Under the pieces are notes generated by a model. That model was not told the DNA's origin. It saw only the letters and a list, made by a program, of their open reading frames with translations, and did no database searches. Positions 1 to 42,011 of a stretch of DNA of 42,011 bases are shown one piece after another. The DNA lies in IMG/VR virus record IMGVR_UViG_3300029558_000018. One strand, written 5' to 3'. Source of the stretch: a virus. A program made the translations under genes and the position numbers. Positions within the stretch are counted from its first letter, which is position 1. The number at the start of each line of letters is the position of its first letter.

Positions 1-33
1 GGCCACCTTCCCCCAAAGGGGGAAGGTGGCCCG
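1..33. repeat. Terminal direct overlap: nt 1-33 identical to nt 41979-42011 (circularly closed assembly)
   Basis: ggccaccttcccccaaagggggaaggtggcccg is read at both window ends. Confidence 0.9.
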
Positions 34-53
34 CAGGCCGGATGAGGGGCGGC
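1..53 (-). repeat. Right arm of a 75-nt perfect palindrome spanning the circular junction; copy 1 of the composite GC-rich hairpin element
   Basis: nt 18-53 are the exact reverse complement of 41957-41992 (36-bp stem; aaa loop at 15-17 = 41993-41995). Carries the shared motif CCTTCCCC-N3-GGGGAAGG-TGGCC-cgca-GGCC-GGATGAGGG. Confidence 0.85.
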
Positions 54-85
54 TTTGCCTTTGCTGCTTGTCTCTTGGTTATTTC

Positions 86-292
86 TTACTTCTTGGTTCG
101 CCGTTTCCGGGTGGCTTGGCTTCCCCCTTGGGGGAAGCTGTCAGCGGCTCCGACCGCTGACTGATGAGGGGCAGCCTCGCCGTTCTCCACTGCCCGGGAA
201 TAATACGTCCCGTCTCCGTTCACGGACTCCACAACATACAGCCGCTTGCCGTCCTCAAAAGTGTCCCCGGTTTTCAATCCTTTAGGAACCAT
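86..292 (-). CDS. Small hypothetical protein (68 aa) downstream of the capsid gene
   Basis: ATG at 292 is preceded by GAGG overlapping the capsid stop (TGAGG). The N-terminal ~40 aa look protein-like (MVPKGLKTGDTFEDGKRLYVVESVNGDGTYYSRAVENGE). The C-terminal ~25 aa are read-through of repeat element copy 1b. Confidence 0.35.
   Translation of the reverse strand: MVPKGLKTGDTFEDGKRLYVVESVNGDGTYYSRAVENGEAAPHQSAVGAADSFPQGGSQATRKRRTKK
120..195 (-). repeat. Composite three-hairpin element, copy 1b
   Basis: H1 CTTCCCC(120-126)/GGGGAAG(131-137). H2 GTCAGCGG(140-147)/CCGCTGAC(154-161). Conserved TGATGAGGG at 162-170. H3 GGGCAG(169-174)/CTGCCC(190-195). Same architecture as the other copies, but H2 has an unrelated sequence. 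Confidence 0.75.
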
Positions 293-303
293 GCTGCACC
301 GCC

Positions 304-1305
304 TCAGGTCAGGGTCGTGCCGGCGGCAGCGCCGCCAAGGATCACATGGCGCCAATCGCCAAAGCCGCAGCTGAAACGGGCTCGGCAGGACGTGATCAGA
401 TCCTGCGTCAGGGTGTCCACATTCTGGAAGGTCTCCAGCGCGGTGCGGTCATAGAACACATTGCCCAGCAGGTCCTTGTTGGCTTGACTGGACATCAGGA
501 TATAGGGCTCTGTTCCGTCAGTGGCCTGCCAATGGTGGTCAACCACCAGCTTCCACATGCCCTTGTTGACGTTCACATCGTTGTAGTTGCTGCCCACCTG
601 CTGGTCAGAGTTGATGATCTTCTTACCCAGCGTGATCAAGCGGTAGCAGTTGGAGGGCACAATCAGCGTGTCGAACACATAGCCCATGCCGTTGCCGGAT
701 GCGTTCTTGAAGTTGAAACCGATGTTGGCAAGGCGGTTCAACATGGCATCGTCATCGCCGAAAGCGTTAGTGAACACATTCGACTGTGCGGCAACGCCGG
801 TCTTGCCGGTGTGGTCTTTTGCAAACAGCGCTTTGCCGTCAGCGGTGGTGGAATCCAGCCCGGTTTTCTTGCCGTAGGTAAATGTTGCAGCGGCGCTGGT
901 CAGTGCCTTGCTGCCAAACTCTGCACGGCTGCGCTTGTAGGCACGCACATTAGCGGCAGAGCGGGCAGCAGCCATATCGAACTGGTTGTCCTCGATCATC
1001 GTCTTGGTGATGCGGAACGCCTTCTTGAACTCATTGTGCTCAATCAGCTTCGGCTCACTCTCGCCGAAATCGTCCAGCGGGGAGCTTGCGCCCTCATCCA
1101 CAAGCTCAAAGTTGGAGAAGGTAGACATGCCTGCGATCTTCTCGCCGAAACGCTTGGACTTCTTGACATTGAACAGCGCATTGACAAGCTCGTCATCGTT
1201 GTTTTTCTCGTTGTCGGTGTCCTTCATTTTCATGGTGAGCAGGTCAGCCCACTCATTCCAAAAATCATTGGCAAGGCCGCTTGCCTTGCTAAAAATAACT
1301 GCCAT
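304..1305 (-). CDS. Major capsid protein (putative)
   Basis: 333-aa ORF directly after the scaffold-like gene; strong RBS (AAAGGAGACTGACTATG); size and position typical of an HK97-fold capsid protein. No motif-level proof. Confidence 0.7.
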   Translation of the reverse strand: MAVIFSKASGLANDFWNEWADLLTMKMKDTDNEKNNDDELVNALFNVKKSKRFGEKIAGMSTFSNFELVDEGASSPLDDFGESEPKLIEHNEFKKAFRITKTMIEDNQFDMAAARSAANVRAYKRSRAEFGSKALTSAAATFTYGKKTGLDSTTADGKALFAKDHTGKTGVAAQSNVFTNAFGDDDAMLNRLANIGFNFKNASGNGMGYVFDTLIVPSNCYRLITLGKKIINSDQQVGSNYNDVNVNKGMWKLVVDHHWQATDGTEPYILMSSQANKDLLGNVFYDRTALETFQNVDTLTQDLITSCRARFSCGFGDWRHVILGGAAAGTTLT

Positions 1306-1328
1306 AGTCAGTCTCCTTTACGCAAAAA

Positions 1329-2165
1329 TCAAATTGAGTTGTAGAGCTTCTGCAGCTCCTCATCGCTCTTGTCCGGGAAATACTCATGCGCTTTCGCAAG
1401 CATACCGCTGCTCATGGTCTTTTCCTTGCCCGGCATATTGGCACCACCGTGCGCGGCCAAGTGCCCCTTGCCGCGTGCCGCGTTGATAGCTGCCTGTTTA
1501 CCGGCCTCCGTACCGCTCTGCACGGCCTTGCCATAGTTCAGCGCCTTATAGGCAGTCACCATGTCCAGCCCGTTTTTCTGCACAAGCTCGACCATCTTGT
1601 CAAAATTTTCAAGCTTGGCAAGATCTGCGGTGGTTTTCAGGCTCGGCTCAATTTTTTGCAGCGCGGCAAAGTCAGCATTGAACGCTGCCTGCGCCTCGTC
1701 GTTGACTCTGGCGGCTTTCAGCTCCTCCATCTCGGCTTTCAGCTGTGCCTTCTCCGGGTCGTTGTCGATAAGGCGCTGCAACGCGGCTCTCTGTTCCGCT
1801 GTCTGGTTCGCCGTGGCCTGCTCGATTGCACGCTGACGGTCAAGCTTGTTCTGGGCGTCCAGTGCGGCGAAATAGTCCTGCATCGACTTGACAGGCGCGC
1901 CGGTCTCTGGGTTTTTGTACCCGGCAAATCTCTGTGCAAATTGTCTGTCCACACGCTGCTGCGCCTCTCGCTCGCTGCGCTGGCGGGCAATGGCCCAGAC
2001 ATTGTTGGGGATTTCCGGTTCTGCGGCAGTTTCCGTGTTTTGGTCGGAACTTTCCACTTCACTTTCCACAGTTTCCACATTTTCTGTCGGGTTGTCGTCA
2101 ATCTGGTCGGCTACGCCAGCGGTCACGCCGTTTTCAAACTCGTCCATAGGTTCCTCCGCGTACAA
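1329..2165 (-). CDS. Capsid scaffolding protein (putative)
   Basis: 278 aa with an acidic N-terminus and long A/Q/E/K-rich helical (coiled-coil-like) sequence, immediately upstream of the capsid gene. Confidence 0.65.
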   Translation of the reverse strand: MYAEEPMDEFENGVTAGVADQIDDNPTENVETVESEVESSDQNTETAAEPEIPNNVWAIARQRSEREAQQRVDRQFAQRFAGYKNPETGAPVKSMQDYFAALDAQNKLDRQRAIEQATANQTAEQRAALQRLIDNDPEKAQLKAEMEELKAARVNDEAQAAFNADFAALQKIEPSLKTTADLAKLENFDKMVELVQKNGLDMVTAYKALNYGKAVQSGTEAGKQAAINAARGKGHLAAHGGANMPGKEKTMSSGMLAKAHEYFPDKSDEELQKLYNSI

Positions 2166-2187
2166 CGCCCGCCGGCTAAATTTGCAT

Positions 2188-2219
2188 AAAAAAAGCGCCT
2201 ACCATCTTTGGTAAGCGCT
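2188..2219 (-). terminator. Intrinsic terminator between the terL/Zn-ribbon genes and the scaffold gene
   Basis: Stem AGCGCCTACC(2194-2203)/GGTAAGCGCT(2210-2219). The plus-strand A-run 2188-2194 gives TTTTTTT after the stem on the minus strand. Confidence 0.7.
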
Positions 2220-2240
2220 TCTTTTATCGTAGTTTTCCTG

Positions 2241-2306
2241 CCTTCCCCCTCGGGGGAAGGTGGCCCCGCAGGGCCGGATGAGGGCAAAGCAAATCTTATT
2301 GCCCTC
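2241..2306 (-). repeat. Composite three-hairpin element, copy 2
   Basis: H1 CCTTCCCC/GGGGAAGG (2241-2260). H2 GGCCC-cgca-GGGCC (2262-2275). GGATGAGGG at 2276-2284. H3 GAGGGCAA(2280-2287)/TTGCCCTC(2299-2306). Confidence 0.8.
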
Positions 2307-2466
2307 CGTCATTCACCGGGTAACTCACCCTCTGCACCGCTTTTCCCGGTGCCAGCTCCCCCACAACCTGCCCAAATCGCGGGCATTGCTTGCTTCGGCA
2401 GATAAATTTCAGCACCTCCGTGCTGGAATCCACACGGCACTCCACGCCGCAAGTCGGGCATCTCAT
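2296..2466 (-). CDS. Small zinc-ribbon protein
   Basis: MRCPTCGVEC...CRSKQCPRFG carries two CxxC pairs. Its ATG overlaps the terL stop as ATGA, suggesting translational coupling. An alternative ATG lies at 2481. Confidence 0.45.
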   Translation of the reverse strand: MRCPTCGVECRVDSSTEVLKFICRSKQCPRFGQVVGELAPGKAVQRVSYPVNDGGQ

Positions 2467-3956
2467 GCAGGGTTCCCCCATTTCTCAATCAGCATTTTGC
2501 GGTCTTTCGGGCTGGCGTTTTTGTAATCCTCGTACATGTCCGCCGTCCACGGCCTTTTTCGTATATTCACAGGCTTTTTCGCCGGGCTTGTCCACCAAAC
2601 GCAAAAATAGCGTAATGCGTCCGGGTAATGCGTCAGGCCGTGCGGGTTCTTCGCATACACATCGGGGTTTTTATCATCCTTCTGTATCTTCGTCAGGCAC
2701 GTCCATAACTCGCCCGGCTTGTAGAACGTCAGATACCCTTTCCCGCTCTTTTCGTCCTTGCGCAGCCATTGTTTCATAGCCGCGCATCCTGCCGGGAAGT
2801 CTCTAGAACTCTGCACCAACGGCAATCCCGCCTCGCCGAACAGCTGTGCCCGGCTCTTGCCGCTCTCCTGGCTTCGGTTCCACAGGTCAGGTGGTGCAAG
2901 ATACATGTCTATCTCTTCCTCGGCAGAATCACGCAAAATCAAGTCTGCCGCTTCACTTATCGTCTTGTTCGGCCCGCCGTCCACCCGGTACACCGTTGCA
3001 TGGCCCTGCGTGTCAACCGCGATCCAAAGCGCCGCCAACATATCAAGGCCGTAGTCAATCGTCACATAGCGTCTTAGCGGCCCAGTGGGCGGTGCATCGA
3101 CCAAGTGGGTATCTTTGTCAAGCTCACTAAAAAAGCGCCCTCCGGGGGCGGAGAGCGCTTCTTCTTCAGTTGCAGGGTACTCCTGCATCGTTTTATCCTC
3201 GCCCAGCGCAGCAACAGTCTGTGCGTACCACTTCTCACTGCGGCGCGGGTCTGTGCTCCACGGCAAAAACAGCTTTGCAAAACCGTTGCCGGGGTTTGTG
3301 TAGATTTCCTCAAACAGCGTGCCAAGTTTGATGGTTGACAACCCGATGACACGTCCGCCGAACGGTCTGTTGATAACCGGGTATGCAGCCTGCCAGATTT
3401 CCTCTGCGTACTGCTGGAACGCCCATTCGTCTATCACGATCAAGTCAGCGGTAAACGAACGGCCTGCCGCAGGGCTTGACGGGAACGCCTTAAACACGCT
3501 CTCCGGGCCGTCCGGCCACATCACAACCACCTGCATTGTGCTTTTGTAGAATACCGGCCCCGTCCAGCCTGCAACGCTGCCGCCCGGCGTGTCCACCTCG
3601 CGGATAAGCCCCGGCATGTATCGCAGTATCACAGCCAAGCGGCGTACAAGCTCTTTGGCCTCGTCCTCTGACCGGCTCAAGCCAATCGCAGTACGGCCTG
3701 TATTCAGCGCCACAAGCCGTGCTACCTCTGCCAGCGCCAACCATGTAAAGCCCAACTGGCGCGCTTTCAGCACGCAAACAAGCCGGTTCTCGGCAAATAC
3801 GACCAGCGCTTTTTTTTGCCCATCCCACAGCGTAAACGGCTGTATCAGCTCGTCTGCGTCCTTGTCCTCAATGTGGCAATATGTTTCGCAAAAATATACC
3901 GGGTCTTTCCTGCACGCCTCGCGCTCAAGTTCCCGCATCTCTTCCAGCGTCAACAC
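2463..3956 (-). CDS. terL: Terminase large subunit
   Basis: 497 aa. Walker-A-like VLKARQLGFTW, Walker-B-like ADLIVIDEWAF and a C-terminal nuclease-sized domain. GTG start at 3956 (ATG alternative at 3938). Confidence 0.9.
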   Translation of the reverse strand: MLTLEEMRELEREACRKDPVYFCETYCHIEDKDADELIQPFTLWDGQKKALVVFAENRLVCVLKARQLGFTWLALAEVARLVALNTGRTAIGLSRSEDEAKELVRRLAVILRYMPGLIREVDTPGGSVAGWTGPVFYKSTMQVVVMWPDGPESVFKAFPSSPAAGRSFTADLIVIDEWAFQQYAEEIWQAAYPVINRPFGGRVIGLSTIKLGTLFEEIYTNPGNGFAKLFLPWSTDPRRSEKWYAQTVAALGEDKTMQEYPATEEEALSAPGGRFFSELDKDTHLVDAPPTGPLRRYVTIDYGLDMLAALWIAVDTQGHATVYRVDGGPNKTISEAADLILRDSAEEEIDMYLAPPDLWNRSQESGKSRAQLFGEAGLPLVQSSRDFPAGCAAMKQWLRKDEKSGKGYLTFYKPGELWTCLTKIQKDDKNPDVYAKNPHGLTHYPDALRYFCVWWTSPAKKPVNIRKRPWTADMYEDYKNASPKDRKMLIEKWGNPA

Positions 3957-4175
3957 ATTACCCCGCCTTTAGCAAAAGTCTTGCGTGGAAAACCAGCCAA
4001 TCAAAACGAATTGCAAAGTTCGGTACCGCATACACCATGTTGTCACGCAAAAACGAAAGCGACGGCAACAGAAAGAATGATTTCCCGTAAATCTCAAAAT
4101 CGAACTTGCAATCCATTTCTCTACCTCAAAATTCCCCAAACCCGCCCTACCGGTCTCTGCTATGCCGGTCTCACC

Positions 4176-4207
4176 CGTTGCGGGGAGCAAATCCGCAACG
4201 CTTTTTT
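4176..4207 (+). terminator. Terminator-like hairpin plus T-run on the plus strand inside the spacer
   Basis: CGTTGCGG(4176-4183)/CCGCAACG(4193-4200) followed by cTTTTTT (4201-4207). No plus-strand gene lies upstream. Confidence 0.45.
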
Positions 4208-4481
4208 GATTCCCTGTATTGTCCGCACAGGGCTGGCGGGCGTCATTTGTATACCGCACAGTCCTGCGGTGTTCGGCAGCATTTATACCCGCGCCCCTAT
4301 CCGCGGTTGAAGTTTGTTTTCGCACTTCACTGTGCGGGCATGTGTTTTCAGGCTCTCGAAGTCCCGTTGCGACCTACCATCGCGCCGCGCTCCTGATCGG
4401 CTTGCCGCTTTGCTTACAGCGTTTAGGTTCACTATCGCGTTTCCTGCGCCGGTCTTTCACCGGTGGGTGCGACCCAGCCTT

Positions 4482-4539
4482 TGCCCTCAGCAGGACTTGA
4501 ACCGGCACACCAAGGCTCTTGCCATTGAGCTACAAGGGC
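4482..4539 (-). ncRNA. tRNA-like element lacking the anticodon arm (58 nt)
   Basis: Minus strand reads GCCCTTG-TA-GCTC-AATGGCAA-GAGC-C-TTGGTGT-GCCGG-TTCAAGT-CCTGC-TGAGGGC-A. It has a 7-bp acceptor stem (two G-U pairs), a canonical D arm and a T arm with TTCAAGT loop (one C-U mismatch). About 17 nt, the size of an anticodon stem-loop, are missing. No CCA is encoded. Confidence 0.6.
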
Positions 4540-4757
4540 ATATAAAAGCCCCGCAGGTTGCGCACTGTTAGTAGGCTCGCGGGGGCTGCCTAACGGGGAA
4601 CACAATTACCGGCGTCCGACCCTGCTACCTTGACCCGTATCATCGGCATTGGTACTGCACATAGGTCTTGCACCTTTGCCACGCCGTTGCTTCGGAACGC
4701 AGCGCCCTTGCCGTATTGACTTGTCAGGCCAAGTTTGCGGCTGGCTATGCAGCATAT

Positions 4758-4786
4758 AAAAAAAGCGCCCTGCCGTAGCAGAACGC
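4758..4786 (-). terminator. Intrinsic terminator inside the terS-terL spacer
   Basis: GCGCCCTGC(4765-4773)/GCAGAACGC(4778-4786) with a 4-nt loop. The plus-strand A-run 4758-4764 gives TTTTTTT after the stem on the minus strand. Confidence 0.7.
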
Positions 4787-5232
4787 TTTGTATTGTGGCC
4801 GCTGGGTCTTGAAGCGGACGGCCCTAGTCCCATAGTCAGAGGAGGTTTTCAAACTGACACCCGCGCCGTGAAACTCAAAATTTCAAAATTTTATTTTTTT
4901 CAGGGAACTTTTGCTATTCAGGGTATAGTCCCCTTATAGGGGGGGATATGTACTCTTGTTTCTTGTTTGTAATACAATCCCGCGTTTCCTTTCATTTTGC
5001 ATGGATATTTGTGGCAGGGGAGAGAATTTATTTTTATGTTCGCTAGGGGAATTGACATATTCGTACCGGGCCGCGCTACCTATGAGCCCCGCCCTCCCCT
5101 TCATAGGGGGTACCCCCTCCCCCCGCTGCCGCCTGCCCTTTTTCGGCAGACCGCCTACAAAAAAATACCCCCGTCCTTCTTCATCTGCAGCCCGTCCCCG
5201 GTTTCCGGCTTCCGCCTGCTGCCGGCCGCTAT

Positions 5233-5256
5233 TTCGCTAAATACTTATTTAGCGAA
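5233..5256. repeat. AT-rich perfect palindrome 9 nt downstream of the terS stop
   Basis: TTCGCTAAAT-actt-ATTTAGCGAA (10-bp arms). No flanking T-run, so it is not a typical terminator. Confidence 0.8.
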
Positions 5257-5264
5257 CCACGAAG

Positions 5265-5819
5265 TCACGTATTATCGTTCTTTTGCAGCCGTCTCTGAAT
5301 ATTCTGCATCAATTCTCTATCTGCATCGGTTACCGCTTCGGCTGTAATCTCCATCTGGTCAGCCGGTTTGTCGCCCGCAGAATCCCGCACAAACACCGCC
5401 GCTTTGACGTCTCCGGCCTTCGCTTTCGCCGCCATCGCAATAGCAATGCTGTCGTACACGGTTATTGGTTTCCCCTGCTGTTGTGCTCGCTGTTGCGCCC
5501 TCTCTGCTAGCTCCTGATCTTCTATCCCTGTAATATCGTCTGGCTGCTGCAGCAAGTCGTTGTAGATGTCCTTAATAGTCCGTCTCTTCGCTTGTAGCTC
5601 GTTGCTTGCTGCTGCTCCTGCCTGTTGAATTGCCCGCTTGCGTTCTGCTGGCTGATCTCCTATGGATTTTGGAGACAACGCCGCAATCTGCGACGGTTTA
5701 ACCACTCGGCCTAAACTGTCCACCAGCTCCCCGCGCTCTGCCTGCTGCCTTGCCCGTTCGACACCCTGCTGCGCCTTGCTCATCTGCTGGACGGCCCGCG
5801 CCGCCTTCTTTTCTGCCAT
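5265..5819 (-). CDS. terS: Terminase small subunit (putative)
   Basis: 184 aa and first gene of the late operon. The C-terminal region (DSIAIAMAAKAKAGDVKAAVFVRDSAGDKPADQMEI) resembles small terminases of Firmicutes phages as I recall them. RBS AAGGTAAGGAGGG. Confidence 0.6.
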   Translation of the reverse strand: MAEKKAARAVQQMSKAQQGVERARQQAERGELVDSLGRVVKPSQIAALSPKSIGDQPAERKRAIQQAGAAASNELQAKRRTIKDIYNDLLQQPDDITGIEDQELAERAQQRAQQQGKPITVYDSIAIAMAAKAKAGDVKAAVFVRDSAGDKPADQMEITAEAVTDADRELMQNIQRRLQKNDNT

Positions 5820-5849
5820 GTTGCCGCCCTCCTTACCTTAAAAAGCAAC

Positions 5850-5880
5850 AAAAAAAGCGCCCAGCGGTAAAGCTGGACGC
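5850..5880 (-). terminator. Intrinsic terminator in the leader immediately upstream of the terS RBS
   Basis: GCGCCCAGC(5857-5865)/GCTGGACGC(5872-5880). The plus-strand A-run 5850-5856 gives TTTTTTT after the stem on the minus strand. Confidence 0.7.
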
Positions 5881-5915
5881 CAGAAACCTAAATTTTCGCG
5901 TTGACACGTTAAAAC

Positions 5916-5976
5916 TGTATAATGAGCGAGCCCCGCCGCGGAAGCTCGCTTCCTCGCGTGGTTTTCTCATTATACA
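5916..5976. promoter_or_regulatory. Inverted repeat TGTATAATGAG/CTCATTATACA carrying a -10 hexamer on each strand; candidate late promoter (minus-strand TATAAT = 5969-5974)
   Basis: Arms at 5916-5926 and 5966-5976. Inner hairpin GAGCGAGC(5924-5931)/GCTCGCTT(5944-5951). Neither TATAAT has a -35 hexamer at 16-18 nt. Confidence 0.4.
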
Positions 5977-6002
5977 CATTTTAGCACGCAAGTGCGATTT
6001 TG

Positions 6003-6262: not shown

Positions 6263-6351
6263 CATGTACAGCTTGCACAATCTGCATGTTTCATGTTTGT
6301 GCATATCTCCGAATGTGCATGAAACATGTTGACAGCATTGCATGAATCATG
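6256..6351. promoter_or_regulatory. Array of four CATG-N3-CATG operator-like sites
   Basis: CATGCAACATG 6256-6266; CATGTTTCATG 6285-6295; CATGAAACATG 6318-6328; CATGAATCATG 6341-6351. The first overlaps the -35 of the leftward promoter. The last two flank or occupy the rightward promoter. Confidence 0.65.
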
Positions 6352-6357
6352 TATAAT
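6329..6357 (+). promoter_or_regulatory. Consensus sigma-70 promoter facing the MTase-like moron
   Basis: TTGACA (6329-6334), 17-nt spacer, TATAAT (6352-6357). Confidence 0.75.
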
Positions 6358-7860
6358 AAAGCCATCGAAACAAAGAGCAGCCGCCCCGGCAATGACTATC
6401 TGCTGGACGCCTTGCAGCTCGACTGCATCGAGCAGTCCGCCGCCCTCCGCGCCACCCTCAAAGAAAACGGTTTCCGCGTCATCCACGACGATTTCCTCAC
6501 CTTCACGCCCCGCGCCCACTATAAGGCGATCATCATGAACCCGCCGTTCTCCGAGGGTGCCCGCCACCTGCTGCACGCCCTGCACATCATGGAGCGGGGC
6601 GGGGAAGTCCGCTGCATCCTCAACGCCGAGACGATCCGCAACCCCTGCACTAACGAGCGCAAGGAGCTTGCCGCCCTGCTTGCCAAGTACAACGCCCGGA
6701 TCACCTACAAGCAAGGCGCCTTCACCCACGCCGCCCGCAAAACCGCGGTAGAGGTTGCGCTCGTTTTCGTCACGATCCCGCCTGCTCCTCCTGTCTCCCG
6801 CATCCGCTTAGAACTCAACGCCGAGACGACACAGCGCTACCAGGCCGCGCCCGAGCTTGCCGCCCTCGTCAACAATGACCCCCTCACGGCAGCAGTCGAG
6901 CGCTACAACGCCGCCGCGGACGGTCTCGCCCGCCTGTATGAAGAATACGACGGTATTTCCTCGCTGTTCACCCTACCCAAAAAGCAGGGCGACAGCAGCG
7001 CCCCCGCGCCCTGCGTCTCCCTCACCAAGAGCTACAACAACGCCCTGTGCGATCTCCGCGCCATCTATTGGGAGCAGCTTTTCGACCTTCCGCAAATCCG
7101 CGACGCCATGACGCAGACGATGCAGAACGACTACCACAAGCGCCTCAACGACCTTCGCCACTACGATTTTACCCCCTACAACATCCTGACCGTGCGCGAG
7201 GAAATCTCCCGCAACATCGTCTCCAACATTGAATCCGAGATCATCCGCCTGTTTGACGACTGGACCAGCACCCACTACGCCGACTACAGTAAGAACATTC
7301 ACTACTACAACGGCTGGTGCACAAACTCCGCCTACAAGGTCAACAAGCGCGTGATCTTCCGCTGCAACGCCTACAGCGTTTACTCCGACGATTTCTGCCC
7401 GACTTTCACCGAAGATGAGATCGCCAACATCGAGAAAACGCTTCACTTCCTCGACACCAACGGCACCGCCTACAACGGCGATGACCTCCGCGCCACGCTC
7501 AAAGCTGCCGAGGCCAGCGGCCAGACCACCAAGATCAAGCTGCACTACTTCACCGCCACGTTCTACAAAAAAGGCACCTGTCACATCGAGTTTACCAACG
7601 CCGATGTGCTGAAATCCTTCAACATCTTCGCATCCCAGAAAAAAGGCTGGCTGCCTCCGTCCTACGGCAAAAAGACCTATCACGACATGAGCACGGCAGA
7701 TCGCGCCGTCGTGGACAGCTTCGAGGGCGAGACCTCCTACAACGACACGATGGCACGGCATCTGGTCCCCACCACCGCAACACTTATGCAGCTTGCCGCC
7801 CACAACCCCGCCTGCCAACCGTCACAAGATTCTGGCCGAGATCATCGGCCGGGCAAATAA
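6349..7860 (+). CDS. N6-adenine-MTase-like protein with degenerate motif I and a large uncharacterised C-terminal domain
   Basis: NPPF at aa 64-67 (IIMNPPFSEG). Motif I reads AIETKSSRPGNDYLL where hhEPxxGxG is expected. About 350 aa of unknown function follow. The only in-frame ATG (6349) lies inside the promoter at 6329-6357. Confidence 0.6.
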   Translation: MYNKAIETKSSRPGNDYLLDALQLDCIEQSAALRATLKENGFRVIHDDFLTFTPRAHYKAIIMNPPFSEGARHLLHALHIMERGGEVRCILNAETIRNPCTNERKELAALLAKYNARITYKQGAFTHAARKTAVEVALVFVTIPPAPPVSRIRLELNAETTQRYQAAPELAALVNNDPLTAAVERYNAAADGLARLYEEYDGISSLFTLPKKQGDSSAPAPCVSLTKSYNNALCDLRAIYWEQLFDLPQIRDAMTQTMQNDYHKRLNDLRHYDFTPYNILTVREEISRNIVSNIESEIIRLFDDWTSTHYADYSKNIHYYNGWCTNSAYKVNKRVIFRCNAYSVYSDDFCPTFTEDEIANIEKTLHFLDTNGTAYNGDDLRATLKAAEASGQTTKIKLHYFTATFYKKGTCHIEFTNADVLKSFNIFASQKKGWLPPSYGKKTYHDMSTADRAVVDSFEGETSYNDTMARHLVPTTATLMQLAAHNPACQPSQDSGRDHRPGK

Positions 7861-8684: not shown

Positions 8685-9800
8685 TTATATCGTTTTATCG
8701 CTTATAAATTTTTCAAGTGCCGCTCCTGCTGTATCTAGCTGGCGTTCCCGTATATGTGTATATACTCGCCGTGTTGTCGTAATGTCGGCATGCCCCATAA
8801 GGCGTTGCGCTTCCAGCTCTGCAATGCCCGCCGCATATAACATGCTGGCGTATTCGTGCCGGAACTGGTGCGCCGTTACGTCGGCAATCCAGTCCTTAAT
8901 CGTCGTTGTGTACTCTTTGCCTCTGTGCTTATTTCTTCGTGTGTGCAGCACATAGTGCGCCATGCCCACATCCTTGCAGTAATATGCCCATCTGCGCTTG
9001 TATGCGCAGCCTGTCAGCGGCCTTTCCCCTCCGAGTATATACTCACTATCTGCCCCGCGCAGCGGTTCCAGCACGCCCCGTAGCGGCGACAGCAGCGGCA
9101 CAGTGCGCACACCGTTTGCAGTTTTCGGCGCTTGTACAATCGGCTGGTTGTTTATCCACGCCACTTCTTTGGAAATGCTAATTCTGTTTTTCTCAAAATC
9201 CACATCATGCCATTGCAGCGCCAGCACCTCACCCAGTCGGCATCCCGTATACATGAACAGCCAGGCACACAGCCCGAACCCCTCCGGGTGTGCCTTGACG
9301 ATTTGTAGCTGTTCCTCTGTCGGCGGCTCACGCTCTGCTTTTTTCATTCCTCTAGGCAAATCCGTAACTGTCACCGGGTTGTATGTTTCGTCATCCCGGA
9401 CGCACCAAAACTTGAACACACAAGACAACACACTCCGGGCATTGCTTGCCGTCTTCCCTGCATAGCCTGCGGCCTTGAATTTCTCGCCCCACAGCGACAC
9501 CAGCGCGGGCGTTATCTCCTTCATGCGGTACCCGCTGAACTCTTCCAGCGCGGCCTTGTAGCTGCCCTTGTAGGCTCTTTCCGCGCCGGTCTTGATATTT
9601 TTTGAATGGCTCTCCCACCATTCACCGGCCACATCCTCAAACAGCGGGCCGTTCTCTTTCACCGCTTCCCGTTGGCGTTCGTACTCGTCAATTTTTGCGG
9701 CGACCTCTTTCGCGGTCTTGCCGTAAAAGTGTACCCGCTTGCCGTCATAGGTTTTTGTCCGTTCAATCAGCCCATCGGCCCGCGCTTTTGCTCTCGCCAT
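8685..9800 (-). CDS. int: Tyrosine integrase
   Basis: 371 aa. C-terminal HQFRHEYASMLYAAGI...LMGHADITTTRRVYTH supplies the R..HxxR..H..Y catalytic signature. An N-terminal SAM-like/arm-binding region is present. Confidence 0.95.
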   Translation of the reverse strand: MARAKARADGLIERTKTYDGKRVHFYGKTAKEVAAKIDEYERQREAVKENGPLFEDVAGEWWESHSKNIKTGAERAYKGSYKAALEEFSGYRMKEITPALVSLWGEKFKAAGYAGKTASNARSVLSCVFKFWCVRDDETYNPVTVTDLPRGMKKAEREPPTEEQLQIVKAHPEGFGLCAWLFMYTGCRLGEVLALQWHDVDFEKNRISISKEVAWINNQPIVQAPKTANGVRTVPLLSPLRGVLEPLRGADSEYILGGERPLTGCAYKRRWAYYCKDVGMAHYVLHTRRNKHRGKEYTTTIKDWIADVTAHQFRHEYASMLYAAGIAELEAQRLMGHADITTTRRVYTHIRERQLDTAGAALEKFISDKTI

Positions 9801-12368: not shown

Positions 12369-12545
12369 ATGAACATTGTATCACTGAAACGCGCCGCCGT
12401 CAAGCTGGCAATCACCGCAGATTTGGTGCTGCTCTTGGCTGCGCTCGGTTCTCTCAACATCCCCACCACTCTCTCCGCCCTGCTGGCGTTGAATCTGCTG
12501 TGCGGACTGTATCCAAAGGAGGAATCCAGCTATGAAGAAATTTGA
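12369..12545 (+). CDS. Small membrane protein
   Basis: 58 aa from the ATG at 12369, with two hydrophobic segments (AITADLVLLLAALGSL, LSALLALNLLCGL). The longer ORF from 12297 has no RBS. Confidence 0.45.
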   Translation: MNIVSLKRAAVKLAITADLVLLLAALGSLNIPTTLSALLALNLLCGLYPKEESSYEEI

Positions 12546-13374
12546 ACTGACCGCCGAATTTGTAACGAACGTTTTCGGGAAGAAGCTGTTCCGTATTAAG
12601 GCTCTCGTCGCTTTTGGCGACGTCGCGAAGGGAGAACTCGGCGGATTTATTGAGAAGGAAGGCAACCTCTCCAACGACGGTAATGCGTGGGTCTCCGGCG
12701 ATGCGTGGGTCTACGGAGATGCGCAGGTCTACGGCAATGCGTGGGTCTCCGGCAATGCGCAGGTCTCCGGCAATGCGTGGGTCTACGGAGATGCGCAGGT
12801 CTACGGCAATGCGTGGGTCTCCGGCAATGCGCAGGTCTCCGGCAATGTGCGGGTCTCCGGCGATGCGTGGGTCTACGGCAATGCGCGGGTCTTCGACAAT
12901 GCGTGGGTCTACGGCAATGCGCAGGTCTACGGCAATGCGTGGGTCTACGGAGATGCGCAGGTCTACGGCAATGCGTGGGTCTACGGAGATGCGCAGGTCT
13001 ACGGCAATGCGTGGGTCTCCGGCAATGCGCAGGTCTCCGGCAATGTGCGGGTCTACGGCAATGCGCAGGTCTCCGGCAATGCGCGGGTCTACGGCAATGC
13101 GCGGGTCTCCGGCGATGCGCAGGTCTCCGGCAATGCGGACTACGCCGTCGTTACAGGCTTTGGACGCTACTTCCGCGCGACTACATTTTTTCGCTGCAAG
13201 GATAAAATTCTCCGCGTGCAGTGCGGTTGCTTTTATGGTGATTTAGCGCAGTTCCGCAAAATCGTCAAGAAAACCCACGGCGACAGCAAATACGCCAAAG
13301 AGTACCTCGCAATCGCCGACTTGATGGAGTTTCATTTTTATGATGAGGAAGAAAATCAGGAGGCCGACGAATGA
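12532..13374 (+). CDS. Hexapeptide-repeat (left-handed beta-helix-like) protein of unknown function
   Basis: 280 aa, RBS GGAGG. It has 25 consecutive G-[ND]-A-x-V-[SY] hexads. The conserved-looking N-terminus is MKKFELT...FGDVAKGELGGFIEKEGNLS. The C-terminus is TTFFRCKD...VQCGCFYGDL..F...V.KTHG. Confidence 0.85.
   Translation: MKKFELTAEFVTNVFGKKLFRIKALVAFGDVAKGELGGFIEKEGNLSNDGNAWVSGDAWVYGDAQVYGNAWVSGNAQVSGNAWVYGDAQVYGNAWVSGNAQVSGNVRVSGDAWVYGNARVFDNAWVYGNAQVYGNAWVYGDAQVYGNAWVYGDAQVYGNAWVSGNAQVSGNVRVYGNAQVSGNARVYGNARVSGDAQVSGNADYAVVTGFGRYFRATTFFRCKDKILRVQCGCFYGDLAQFRKIVKKTHGDSKYAKEYLAIADLMEFHFYDEEENQEADE
12679..13128 (+). repeat. Tandem array of 25 x 18-nt units (GGCAATGCGTGGGTCTCC and variants)
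   Basis: Units were read directly. The 54-nt block 12715-12768 recurs exactly at 12787-12840. All three forward frames stay open across the array. Confidence 0.95.
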
Positions 13375-19081: not shown

Positions 19082-19491
19082 TCCAAAAATACATTATCTC
19101 CCTGCCCCCCATCACCAAAAAGAACTCCCAGCAGATATTTACCAACCACCGCACCGGAAAGCCGTTCATCGCCCCCAGCAGGCAGTACAAGAAGTACGAA
19201 CAGGCCGCTATGTGGTATCTTACCCCCAAGCCGAAAGCCCCGCTGTCAGGCCGCTACCGCGTCGCCACGGTATTCTATATGCCGACCCGCCGCAAAGTAG
19301 ACCTCACGAACTTGATGGAGGCTGCCCATGACACCCTTGTCGCCGCCAAAATCCTTGCAGACGACAACAACACCATCATCGCCAGCGTAGACGGTTCCCG
19401 CGTGCTGTACGACAAATCCAACCCCCGCACCGAAATTTTCATTGAAGAATTGGAGGATGAAGCAGATGCCCATCTGCGAACTTTACCATGA
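19078..19491 (+). CDS. rusA: RusA-family Holliday junction resolvase
   Basis: LPPITKKNS...VDLTNLMEAAHDTLVAAKILADDNNTII...PRTEIFIEEL. ATGA overlap with the upstream gene. Confidence 0.85.
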   Translation: MIQKYIISLPPITKKNSQQIFTNHRTGKPFIAPSRQYKKYEQAAMWYLTPKPKAPLSGRYRVATVFYMPTRRKVDLTNLMEAAHDTLVAAKILADDNNTIIASVDGSRVLYDKSNPRTEIFIEELEDEADAHLRTLP

Positions 19492-20242
19492 TAATTTTCA
19501 AAACTACAAGTGCTACGGCATTCCACACGCCCAGCTTGTAATTGCTGATATTCCCTATAACATCGGGGCCGATGCCTACGCCAGCAATCCGGTGTGGTAC
19601 AACGGCGGTGACAACAAAAACGGCGAGAGCAAACTTGCCAAAAAGAACTTTTTCAACACAGATGGCCGTTTCAAAATTGCAGAGTATATGCACTTTTGCT
19701 CCAAACTGCTTGTCAAAGAGCCGAAGGAACGCGGCAAGGCCCCGGCCATGATTGTGTTCTGCGCGTTTGAGCAAATGCAGGAAATCGCTGAATGGGGAAA
19801 AAAGTACGGATTCATGAAATCCTACCCGCTGTTTTTCGTAAAAAACTACTCTGCCCAAGTGCTCAAAGCCAATATGCGTATCGTCGGTGCGACTGAGTTC
19901 GCCGTCGTGCTCTACCGCGACAAGCTACCCAAATTCAACGGCGGCGGCCACATGGTTTATAACTGGTTCGAGTGGCGGCGCGATTCCGGCAAGGAATACC
20001 CCAAAATTCATCCCGCCCAAAAGCCAGTAAACCTGCTGAAACGCCTAATTGAAATTTTCACAGACCCCGGCGATGTTGTGATTGACCCCTGCGCCGGTTC
20101 CGGTTCTACGCTCCGCGCAGCCTATGAATGCGGGCGCGACAGCTACGGTTTTGAGGTTGACCGCAATTTTTACGCCCTCGCCAAAGAAAAAATGCTCGAC
20201 TTTTCCCAAGAGCAAATGACGTTGGAGCAAATCGCAACATGA
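19466..20242 (+). CDS. N4/N6 DNA methyltransferase (beta class)
   Basis: ADIPYNIG (DPPY-type motif IV) lies N-terminal to VIDPCAGSGSTLRAA (motif I). The ATG at 19466 follows TGGAGGA. Confidence 0.85.
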   Translation: MPICELYHDNFQNYKCYGIPHAQLVIADIPYNIGADAYASNPVWYNGGDNKNGESKLAKKNFFNTDGRFKIAEYMHFCSKLLVKEPKERGKAPAMIVFCAFEQMQEIAEWGKKYGFMKSYPLFFVKNYSAQVLKANMRIVGATEFAVVLYRDKLPKFNGGGHMVYNWFEWRRDSGKEYPKIHPAQKPVNLLKRLIEIFTDPGDVVIDPCAGSGSTLRAAYECGRDSYGFEVDRNFYALAKEKMLDFSQEQMTLEQIAT

Positions 20243-21801: not shown

Positions 21802-22397
21802 GTACAACAATAGGATGCCCGATTCCTGGCGCAAGCCAGCCGAAAGAACCAATGCGGCTGATTGATGCTAATGAGCTTTTGAAATATTTAAACACAAACG
21901 ACTGCGCATACGACGGCGGCGAATTTCAAGCATACGAGAGTTGTATGATGTATGTACGCGATCTGGTCAACGATTTACCAACCATCGCCCCAGAATCCCT
22001 GCGACCTACGGCACATTGGGCTAAAGACAGACTGCCAGCCAAACACGAATGCGTACTTATCTACGATTCTGTTTGTCACAACATTTATATGGCATGGAGA
22101 GACGATGATTTAGACGTATGGTTCAGCAAGGAACATTTACCAGATTGTTTATGTCACCCACTGGATGCCGCTCCCAGAACCCCCGGAGGTGACCCCATGA
22201 CCATTATCCTTGTTATCGCCGCCGTCTGTGTTTACTACCTGTGCGGCCTGCTCGCCGTCCTGTACATCAACCACACAGACAGAATGGACACCGTAGACGG
22301 CGCAGACAACGTTATTGTCCTTATTTTCTGGCCGCTGCTGGTCGTAACCCGCATTGGCATTGCATGTTATAGAATCATAAGGAGGCTTCTAAAATGA
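21798..22397 (+). CDS. Hypothetical protein with a C-terminal two-TM segment (possible nested 67-aa product)
   Basis: ATGA overlap with the upstream gene. An in-frame internal ATG at 22196 is preceded by GGAGGTG. The tail sequence is MTIILVIAAVCVYYLCGLLAVLY...VIVLIFWPLLVV. Confidence 0.55.
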   Translation: MSTTIGCPIPGASQPKEPMRLIDANELLKYLNTNDCAYDGGEFQAYESCMMYVRDLVNDLPTIAPESLRPTAHWAKDRLPAKHECVLIYDSVCHNIYMAWRDDDLDVWFSKEHLPDCLCHPLDAAPRTPGGDPMTIILVIAAVCVYYLCGLLAVLYINHTDRMDTVDGADNVIVLIFWPLLVVTRIGIACYRIIRRLLK

Positions 22398-22837
22398 CTT
22401 CTACCCCAGCAGGCAACACCCAGCGTCAAAAATGGATGGAAAAATACGCCGCCTATCAGAAAGACTTCATCGAGGCCCGCGATAAATTCTATGAATCCAA
22501 CGTCGCCATGGCGGCGCACCCCGCTGATGGTATGCCCAAAGGCAACACCCGCTATGACCCGGTAGCCCGCCTGGCAGAGCGGTACGATAAAGCCTATGCC
22601 CGGTACTGCCGTGCCCGCGCCGAGATGAACACAGCCTATTTCAAGCGGCACGAAGCTATGAAACCCCTCAACTCCGACCAGCAATCTGTCCTGATCTCCA
22701 TTTACTTTGAGGGCAAATCACGCCGCGATACAGCAAAAGAACTGAATCGTTCTGATTTCTGGGTACGTGCGCAGGAACGCACCGGCCTGTTTCTTCTGGA
22801 ACTCCCCTCCGGCTGGGAACTTGATATTCTCCCCTGA
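22394..22837 (+). CDS. Sigma-70 region-4-like late transcription regulator (ArpU/RinA-like position)
   Basis: LNSDQQSVLISIYFEGKSRRDTAKELNRSDFWVRAQ. Last gene of the early operon. Confidence 0.6.
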   Translation: MTSTPAGNTQRQKWMEKYAAYQKDFIEARDKFYESNVAMAAHPADGMPKGNTRYDPVARLAERYDKAYARYCRARAEMNTAYFKRHEAMKPLNSDQQSVLISIYFEGKSRRDTAKELNRSDFWVRAQERTGLFLLELPSGWELDILP

Positions 22838-30958: not shown

Positions 30959-30985
30959 AGCTCAAGACCTCCAAATTCCCTAAAA

Positions 30986-31062
30986 CCTTCCCCATCGGGG
31001 AAAGGTGGCCCCGCAAGGCCGGATGAGGGCAAACTTGATCCAGCTGCTCACTCACCCTGCAT
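30986..31062 (-). repeat. Composite three-hairpin element, copy 3
   Basis: H1 CCTTCCCC-atc-GGGGAAAGG (30986-31005, one bulged A). H2 GGCC-ccgcaa-GGCC (31007-31020). GGATGAGGG at 31021-31029. Weak H3 ATGAGGG/CCCTgCAT. Confidence 0.7.
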
Positions 31063-41911: not shown

Positions 41912-41950
41912 ATCGTCACTCCTGTGTGGTCATGCCCACGCAAATGTGAT

Positions 41951-42011
41951 AAAAAAGCCGCCCCTCATCCGGCCTGCGGGCCACCTTCCCCCAAAGGGGG
42001 AAGGTGGCCCG
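41951..42011 (-). terminator. Left arm and loop of the junction palindrome with its minus-strand T-run: very strong intrinsic terminator between the capsid and portal genes
   Basis: 41957-41992 pairs perfectly with 18-53 across the junction (36 bp). The plus-strand A-run 41951-41956 gives TTTTTT after the stem on the minus strand. Confidence 0.75.

Follow-up and report, generated by a model that had tools for sequence, protein, structure and literature searches.

Hairpin elements of a temperate phage genome as probable solo arms of a REP/RIME-type bacterial repeat

As hairpins between cistrons, REP sequences of Escherichia coli have been shown to stop 3'-5' exonucleases, set processing sites or adjust relative expression, and Rickettsia palindromic elements (RPE) are palindromic repeats that are tolerated in frame inside protein genes. 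The REP-BIME and REPIN-RAYT systems of enterobacteria and pseudomonads consist of non-autonomous inverted hairpin doublets with a spacer and distinct arm types; they prefer 3' ends and convergent genes and are known to stabilise mRNAs or terminate transcription as a side effect, and REPINs are lineage-specific. In phage HK022, the put RNAs are two adjacent stem-loops in the phage transcript, encoded at promoter-proximal, phage-specific sites that are essential for read-through. In rhizobia, CCTTCCCCCGCGCGGGGGAAGG is the REP palindrome of Sinorhizobium meliloti and every ISRm22 copy inserts there, as given in a table of PMC7771070 after Tobes and Pareja 2006 (PMC1525189), whose text on S. meliloti credits these repeats to Osteras 1995 (RIME). 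As regards viruses, the host links given in a survey of MITEs common to viruses and prokaryotes connect 33 viral sequences to Gemmiger, the top genus there for new virus-host links (PMC11602168).

Here we analysed a window of 42,011 nt (IMG/VR record IMGVR_UViG_3300029558_000018), a phage genome which was read as circular because its last 33 nt (41979-42011) repeat the first 33 (1-33), and which is temperate considering that it encodes a tyrosine integrase (Table 1). The original prediction had proposed four direct copies of a GC-rich hairpin element in this genome and a fifth, inverted copy at the junction of the circle. A covariance model built from 28 gap-free arms and run on the window with filters off recovered exactly five full-length arms with E-values from 1e-15 to 1e-23, everything else being at noise level. 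Pattern counts agreed with this result: the pattern of the first hairpin (H1) gave 7 overlapping matches at the five copies versus 0.11 expected (each of the two junction copies matches in two registers), KGATGAGGG gave 7 versus 0.6 expected, and in both cases none of 100 shuffles scored as high. Thus, all five copies exist at or near the predicted positions.

Table 1. Positions of the repeat arms, neighbouring genes and other features in the window (CM, covariance model)
Feature	Position	Strand	Remarks
Copy 1, A arm	4-50	+	CM 50.3 bits, E 4e-15; H1 6-26, H2 ~27-39, tag GGATGAGGG 40-48; right half of junction palindrome
Copy 2, B arm	117-172	+	CM 51.0 bits; GCTTCCCCC-TT-GGGGGAAGC, linker TGTC, H2 GTCAGCGG..CCGCTGAC, tag CTGATGAGGG
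Copy 3, A arm + H3	2239-2306 (arm 2239-2286)	+	CM 74.6 bits; fold; H3 pairs GAGGGCAA (2279-2286) with TTGCCCTC (2299-2306)
Copy 4, A arm + H3, slightly decayed	30984-31057 (arm 30984-31031)	+	CM 55.3 bits, 2 broken pairs; fold; H3 pairs GGATGAG (31021-31027) with CTCACCC (31051-31057)
Inverted A arm, left half of junction palindrome	41954-42009; CM match 41960-42006	-	CM 51.8 bits
Intrinsic terminator, 19-bp stem + U7	2219->2188	-	just downstream of copy 3 in transcript sense; independent of copy 3
terL	3956->2463	-	
Zn-ribbon small gene, 56 aa	2466->2296	-	stop codon in loop + stem of copy 3 H3
Scaffold-like gene	2165->1329	-	
Major capsid gene	1305->304	-	
Small post-capsid gene, 68 aa (MVPKGLK...KRRTKK)	292->86	-	conserved, downstream of capsid gene
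Portal gene	41911->40028	-	across junction from small post-capsid gene
310-aa and 2,095-aa genes	beyond portal gene	-	
Tyrosine integrase	8685-9800	-	
D12-methyl RNA motif (RF02950)	4137-4200	-	84 bits versus gathering score 57; strong match
Rfam tRNA match	4482-4539	-	34.5 bits, 58 nt, barely over threshold
DNA methylase genes	6349-7860, 19442-20242		
YdcK beta-solenoid / bactofilin-like protein	12532-13374	+	early/middle region
Tandem repeat	12677-13137		25.6 copies of an 18-nt unit, coding for the YdcK beta-solenoid / bactofilin-like protein
Small protein before late block	22394-22837	+	weak sigma-70 region-4 match

The three-hairpin architecture that had been proposed for every copy stood only in part. 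H1, a second hairpin (H2) and a conserved tag are present in all arms, and a third, local hairpin (H3) follows two of them; predicted folds of both strands place H3, H2 and H1 in a row at copies 3 and 4, but copy 2, a B arm with the linker TGTC, folds into H2 and H1 only. The region 2182-2330 has a very stable predicted fold (z = -7). Similarly, the copies had been described as lying between genes, which is true of copy 4, with the stop of the 310-aa gene on one side and the ribosome-binding site for the 2,095-aa gene on the other; however, the stop codon of the Zn-ribbon gene is inside H3 of copy 3, and copy 2 lies in frame within the conserved 68-aa gene, where it encodes the linker GEAAPHQSAVGAADSFPQGGSQ. 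Such an in-frame insertion is reminiscent of RPE, although the sequence is unrelated and most copies here are extragenic. The terminator reported beside copy 3 is real, with its stem followed by U7. In transcript sense, the U-run directly after the element hairpin is T6 at the junction palindrome, weak (UUUU) at copy 4 and missing at copy 3. The spurious plus-strand ORFs sharing GEGGPAGPDEGK-type peptides are explained by the elements, as had been suggested. The arms are open in several frames merely through being GC-rich.

Several other features of the phage genome were observed. The D12-methyl motif lies upstream of terL in transcript sense and adjoins neither DNA methylase gene, and the weak tRNA match, for which ARAGORN calls no tRNA, could represent a fragment resembling a tRNA or what remains of an attachment site. 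The small protein whose gene directly precedes the late block is a possible activator of late genes. When 20 early/middle-region phage ORFs were scanned with Pfam, no transposase was found; the 10 late-block proteins were scanned with PHROGs only.

On the basis of ~300 arm instances, the arm can be described as a sequence-conserved H1, a linker of 1-4 nt, H2 and the tag GATGAGGG. Three arm types are set apart by compensatory changes at the base of H1, namely A arms (H1 CCTTCCCC..GGGGAAGG; copies 1, 3 and 4), B arms (H1 GCTTCCCC..GGGGAAGC, linker TGTC, tag CTGATGAGGG; copy 2) and C arms (H1 GTCTTCCCC..GGGGAAGAC). The sequence of H2 is free but its pairing is constant (GGCCC/GGGCC, GCCGC/GCGGC, GTCAGC/GCTGAC, GACCGC/GCGGTC, GCATTTGC/GCAAATG and others). 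Base pairing holds for 97.9% of the cells in an alignment of 109 distinct arms taken from viral loci, and H2 pairs switch between GC, CG and UA, two of them with 34 double changes each. The observed score was reached by none of 500 shuffles, and slid controls, like shuffles, fall far below it. This 109-arm alignment was fitted to the model, but covariation of H2 is plain in the raw arm list too. Mismatches in the stems are rare and symmetric (11 A.C versus 8 G.T), and this lack of wobble asymmetry gives no sign of selection on one RNA strand. The observations that had been named beforehand as refuting the original prediction came out mixed: some arms lie within genes and bacterial copies face both ways, yet compensatory base changes are present.

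We also considered whether the arms belong to some other class of structured element. No Rfam family was assigned to them, either by a gathering scan of the window or by an E-value scan over eight loci that carry full elements. B arms contain CUGAUGAG, a feature of the hammerhead ribozyme, but have no GAAA, no stem III and no Rfam match; HDV-like, twister and pistol ribozymes show no likeness on inspection and no Rfam match either. A DGR target hairpin was rejected because no reverse transcriptase is present among the window proteins scanned, and an integron attC because R/L boxes were not seen. The arms have GGAAGGTG in common with the IS5 terminal repeat, which was judged coincidental because H1 would fall outside the element. 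A conserved encoded peptide was dismissed as well, considering that the core is not conserved and the reading frame is not unique.

In contrast to these candidates, the S. meliloti repeats match closely. H1 is the S. meliloti REP palindrome, CCTTC(C/T)CCC-loop-GGG(G/A)GAAGG, and the likeness extends to the whole arm (CCCCTCATCC-H2-H1): in 200 kb of pSymB from S. meliloti 1021 the covariance model recovered two arms, one of which reads CCCCTCATCCGGCCTGCCGGCCACCTTCTCCCCGCAAGCGGGG, and pSymB carries CCCCTCATCCGGCCTGCCGGCCACCTTCTCCCC..., the whole arm. The 47-nt phage arm matched 98 plasmid or chromid records with 87-94% identity over ~46 nt, and nearly all of these list no gene at the matched position; among them are 71 replicons from Rhizobium, 16 from Shinella and others from Planctomyces and Xanthomonas. 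These direct tests indicate that the arms are a known kind of bacterial interspersed repeat whose host range is much wider than its name, and their equation with RIME1/RIME2 would rest on the REP palindrome and the pSymB sequence. As with the S. meliloti REP/RIME repeats, the elements are multi-copy, extragenic mosaics of hairpin modules, as seen here in bacterial loci, and H1 receives small insertions, namely ISRm22 in the rhizobia and an insert of 60 nt in the loci studied here. Unlike RIME, they occur in Clostridia, in their temperate phages and in Planctomycetes, and so are not 'Rhizobium-specific', and the phage copies are solo arms. They share with REP-BIME and REPIN systems the inverted doublets, distinct arm types, non-autonomy and preference for gene ends described above, but differ in having two hairpins per arm, a conserved single-stranded tag (G/T)GATGAGGG instead of GTAG/CGTC, no RAYT gene among the phage and bacterial ORFs scanned, and arms that are sequence-conserved across phyla. 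The MITEs surveyed in PMC11602168 are likewise short host repeats in viral genomes, but the account given there defines them by TIR/TSD software.

A scan of public collections with the pattern GGAAGGTGGCC-N3-9-GGCCGGATGAGGG yielded 60 loci in viruses and at least 120 in bacteria. In these searches the window shared with other genomes the elements alone: BLAST of the whole window against 120 bacterial loci matched only at the elements, and megablast of window 1-6000 against 50,697 phage records gave only 45-nt element matches, in three otherwise unmatched faecal phage contigs. Arms are carried by Clostridia (three strains of Gemmiger formicilis, Faecalibacterium, Intestinimonas, Pseudoflavonifractor and Pseudobutyrivibrio), Planctomycetes (Paludisphaera and Isosphaeraceae), Rhizobiales (Shinella, Roseiarcus and Devosia) and also Myxococcales, Betaproteobacteria, Rhodanobacter, Verrucomicrobia, Elusimicrobia and Anaerolineae. 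In bacteria, a variable hairpin core usually separates an A arm from an inverted B (or C) arm, so that imperfect inverted arms of ~45 nt bound the full elements as terminal inverted repeats, whereas the window has only single arms and the pair at the junction. Spacing within the 75 convergent arm pairs that we found peaks at 48-51 nt in Clostridia and phages and at 81-99 nt in Planctomycetes; in Clostridia the pairs are mostly A+B, with conserved arms and highly variable cores, and the core hairpin is closed by GATGAGGGG and CCCCTCATC. Using a crude home-made gene caller, we counted 20 bacterial arm pairs between convergent genes and 4 between divergent genes. Genes flanked or enclosed by bacterial arms are housekeeping ones (aminotransferase, asparagine synthase, ribosomal protein L31, DHPS, LptE and a LytR-family protein), and a search for an autonomous element among 10 arm-flanked bacterial ORFs between distant arm pairs found no transposase. 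The element flanks are complementary A and T runs, not direct repeats, and no clean target-site duplication was seen at the phage sites compared. An A-run lies just outside H1 in 24 of 70 Clostridia arms versus 4 of 53 viral arms, which means that the opposite strand has H1 followed by a T-run and is terminator-like.

Some loci contain further small elements. A 60-nt two-hairpin insert (AGTCTACGCGCTAAGAGCCGCC..GGCGGTTGCGCTACGACACGCGCCTGCGGGCGCAG) is present inside H1 in phages L033, L045, L048, L215 and L228 and in locus L128 of Gemmiger formicilis ATCC 27749; it always lies between CACCTTC and CCCC of H1, in arms with different H2 and with no obvious target duplication, and looks like a site-specific mini-element targeting the repeat. 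A second small GC-rich hairpin repeat, GGGGCGTCGAGGACGCCGCCCC, is found together with arms at 16 loci (e.g., L192 5147-5168, L194 3041-3062 and, in three copies, L096), and the small post-capsid gene of L192 contains it in frame. In Planctomycete loci (e.g., L142, L144 and L158), conservation extends further, to additional flanking sequence (..GGGCATCATGACGG before H1) and to a longer core (GACGAGCG..GGCCGTCGG), which suggests a larger lineage-specific unit.

Comparison with related phages provides evidence of insertion polymorphism, because presence, absence and decay of arms are seen at all three sites among 30-odd relatives. For the capsid-portal site (site A) and the site between the Zn-ribbon gene and its terminator (site B), 36 loci were fetched via the capsid protein and 32 compared; for the site between the 310-aa and 2,095-aa genes (site C), 26 were fetched via the 310-aa protein and 24 compared. 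At site A, only the window, L184 and L195 have an intact copy 2; in relatives of the L188 and L194 types it has decayed, and others lack it or have it replaced. Translations from 32 relatives show that the small post-capsid gene keeps its MVPKGLK.. N-terminal domain and basic C-terminus, whereas its middle follows the state of the element. At the terminator position of site A, an A arm is present only in the window and L204; in L204 it is enclosed by GCCGCCCCTCATCC and GGATAGGGAGCGGC followed by T6. The other relatives have a plain terminator, mostly AGCGGCTCTGCTACGGCAGGGCCGC+T6. At site B, 23 of 31 relatives have an arm, whole or decayed, and nine have none (L185-187, L190, L191, L199, L200, L210 and L211), whereas the 2188-2219 terminator is kept in all of them, with or without the arm, and gene order is the same. 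H2 differs between relatives at this single site (GGCCC/GGGCC, GCCGC/GCGGC and GGCC/GGCC), implying repeated insertion or gene conversion.

Site C offers a comparison of an empty with a filled allele. The empty allele is a hairpin with a T-run terminator (GGGGCGGC-loop-GCCGCCCC-ACCA-CTTTTTG), and in the filled allele the same hairpin (GGGGCGG..GCCGCCCC) runs directly into TCATCC-H2-H1-CTTG, with the T-run reduced. To judge from these L222-type and L229-type sequences, H3 at site C appears to be the local terminator hairpin. A general model in which the arm inserts between the stem and the T-run of a terminator fits this site but fails in the L053/L044/L057 phage cluster, where H3 itself is conserved among copies (GGCAG..GTCTGCC) with no T-run after it, so the picture of insertion at terminators is not general. 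In that cluster, arms are often located 5-25 nt upstream of the next ribosome-binding site.

The palindrome predicted at the junction was confirmed as assembled, with some reservation. After circularisation it is a perfect palindrome of ~110 nt, as assembled on the contig ends, with A6 and T-rich runs as flanks, and it also appears as an inverted repeat (I1) with 56-nt arms that are 95% complementary when the 3-nt loop is counted inside the arms. Because it spans the contig ends, the lack of an IMG/VR match to the exact junction palindrome tells nothing about this contig; a break at this place is what one would expect from a real long inverted repeat. L204, the only relative with an arm at the junction site, has an imperfect palindrome. 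Situated between the small post-capsid and portal genes, the junction palindrome with its flanks resembles a bidirectional intrinsic terminator. The loop of H1 at the junction (41948-42011 plus 1-62) is AAA in the window versus TTT in the homologous arm of L204 and L039, which could be a palindrome flip or an assembly ambiguity.

We also examined the orientation of solo arms relative to their flanking genes. After removal of duplicate insertion sites, viral solo arms are antisense at 31 sites and sense at 7 (10 versus 2 by contig cluster), so that phage mRNA usually carries CCCUCAUC-H2-H1, whereas bacterial solo arms have no orientation bias. Strand-specific insertion, selection against the sense orientation and an RNA-level function are all possible causes of the bias. 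In the sense orientation, an SD-like GGGGGAAGGUGG and an AUG are placed into the message, so selection against it is possible.

Taken together, we consider it probable (about 0.75) that the elements are solo arms of a non-autonomous host repeat of the REP/BIME/RIME type carried by a temperate phage, mostly as passengers. The first suggestion of the original prediction, REP/MITE-like palindromes, is thereby upheld, considering that the arms are multi-copy beside ordinary genes in several phyla, are present, absent or decayed in relatives, occur in frame in a gene and have a published REP as H1. The likely phage hosts are Gemmiger, Faecalibacterium and other Oscillospiraceae, whose chromosomes carry the repeat family. 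As the phage is temperate, it is plausible that solo arms were acquired during lysogeny, while it resided in arm-bearing hosts, either through a putative trans-acting host enzyme recognising the folded arm or by recombination or gene conversion with host copies, after which they would persist, be exchanged or decay. Because no mobilising enzyme was found among the ORFs scanned and no target-site duplication is evident, we only infer transposition. In the phage, arms would mostly be passengers in the form of very stable intercistronic hairpins, and at the capsid-portal junction an arm-derived palindrome would take the place of an ordinary terminator. Against this reading, the fact that H1 and the tag keep their sequence in different phyla could instead be due to a conserved host factor or function, and the strong antisense bias of phage solo arms, together with their nearness to ribosome-binding sites, is not predicted by a purely neutral passenger model. 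The bias and this position lend some weight to an action of the arms at the RNA level in the late transcript, which the original prediction had considered too and where, like REPs of E. coli, they might block 3'-5' exonucleases, set processing sites or tune relative expression. The position of arms between a stop codon and the next ribosome-binding site, the very stable predicted fold around copy 3, the terminator-like opposite strand of many Clostridia arms and the arm-derived hairpin plus T6 at the junction are all consistent with such a role, but every site is dispensable in close relatives, one copy lies inside a coding sequence and others are decaying, the stem mismatches lack wobble asymmetry, and strand-specific insertion could equally give the orientation bias. 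We therefore regard a function in RNA as possible but doubtful; it could coexist with a mobile origin through exaptation.

The original prediction had also offered, as speculation, that the arms are cis-acting, put-like RNAs which make RNA polymerase read through downstream terminators. Two adjacent hairpins do lie upstream of terminators at two sites, with one shared orientation in this phage, and in this they resemble put RNAs. However, the nine relatives without copy 3 keep the terminator and the gene order, the arm at site C replaces the T-run position of the relatives' terminator and is not upstream of one, Rfam gives no family, and the same module stands beside housekeeping genes in many phyla, often between convergent genes and in both orientations. 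Dispensable, widespread in bacteria and located at gene ends, the arms thus differ from put sites in each respect, and this explanation seems to us hardly credible. A different question is whether the pair or the arm is the mobile unit. It is conceivable, though in our view unlikely, that existing GC-rich (terminator) hairpins which end in CCCC gain single arms at their 3' foot in a strand-specific way, in which case the bacterial full elements would be bidirectional terminators decorated on both strands. One clean comparison, the shared hairpin of the empty and filled alleles at site C, favours this view, as do the variable cores beside conserved arms and the A/T runs flanking many Clostridia elements, and the operon orientation bias would follow automatically; yet H3 is conserved among copies in another phage cluster with no T-run after it, and pairs are mostly A+B, not random combinations. 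With similarly little confidence, we may go further and speculate that the arm is a self-contained ~45-nt module, sequence-conserved in at least six phyla, that is either added strand-specifically to hairpin 3' feet by a single-strand DNA mechanism (HUH-type or other) without TIRs or target duplications, or kept as a compound 3'-end signal read by conserved cellular machinery. If true, this would explain the phage antisense bias, the variable cores and the sequence identity across phyla, and full elements would be decorated bidirectional terminators, not classical MITEs.

Returning to the reading of the arms as host repeats in a temperate phage, the kind of repeat is known, and what is new is its membership in Clostridia, Planctomycetes and gut phages, the modular view of the arm, the orientation bias in phages and the 60-nt insert nested in H1. 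GC-rich arm blocks of this kind should not be annotated as phage regulatory RNAs, and they explain odd C-termini of small phage proteins. The shared repeat is also a practical clue to hosts such as Gemmiger and other Oscillospiraceae. A repeat described as 'Rhizobium-specific' spans, with near-identical arms, Clostridia, Planctomycetes, several proteobacterial classes and temperate gut phages, and this wide span raises the question of which enzyme or host factor keeps the family in place. Testable leads to the mechanism come from the bias of arm orientation in phages and from the 60-nt insert that is site-specific within H1.
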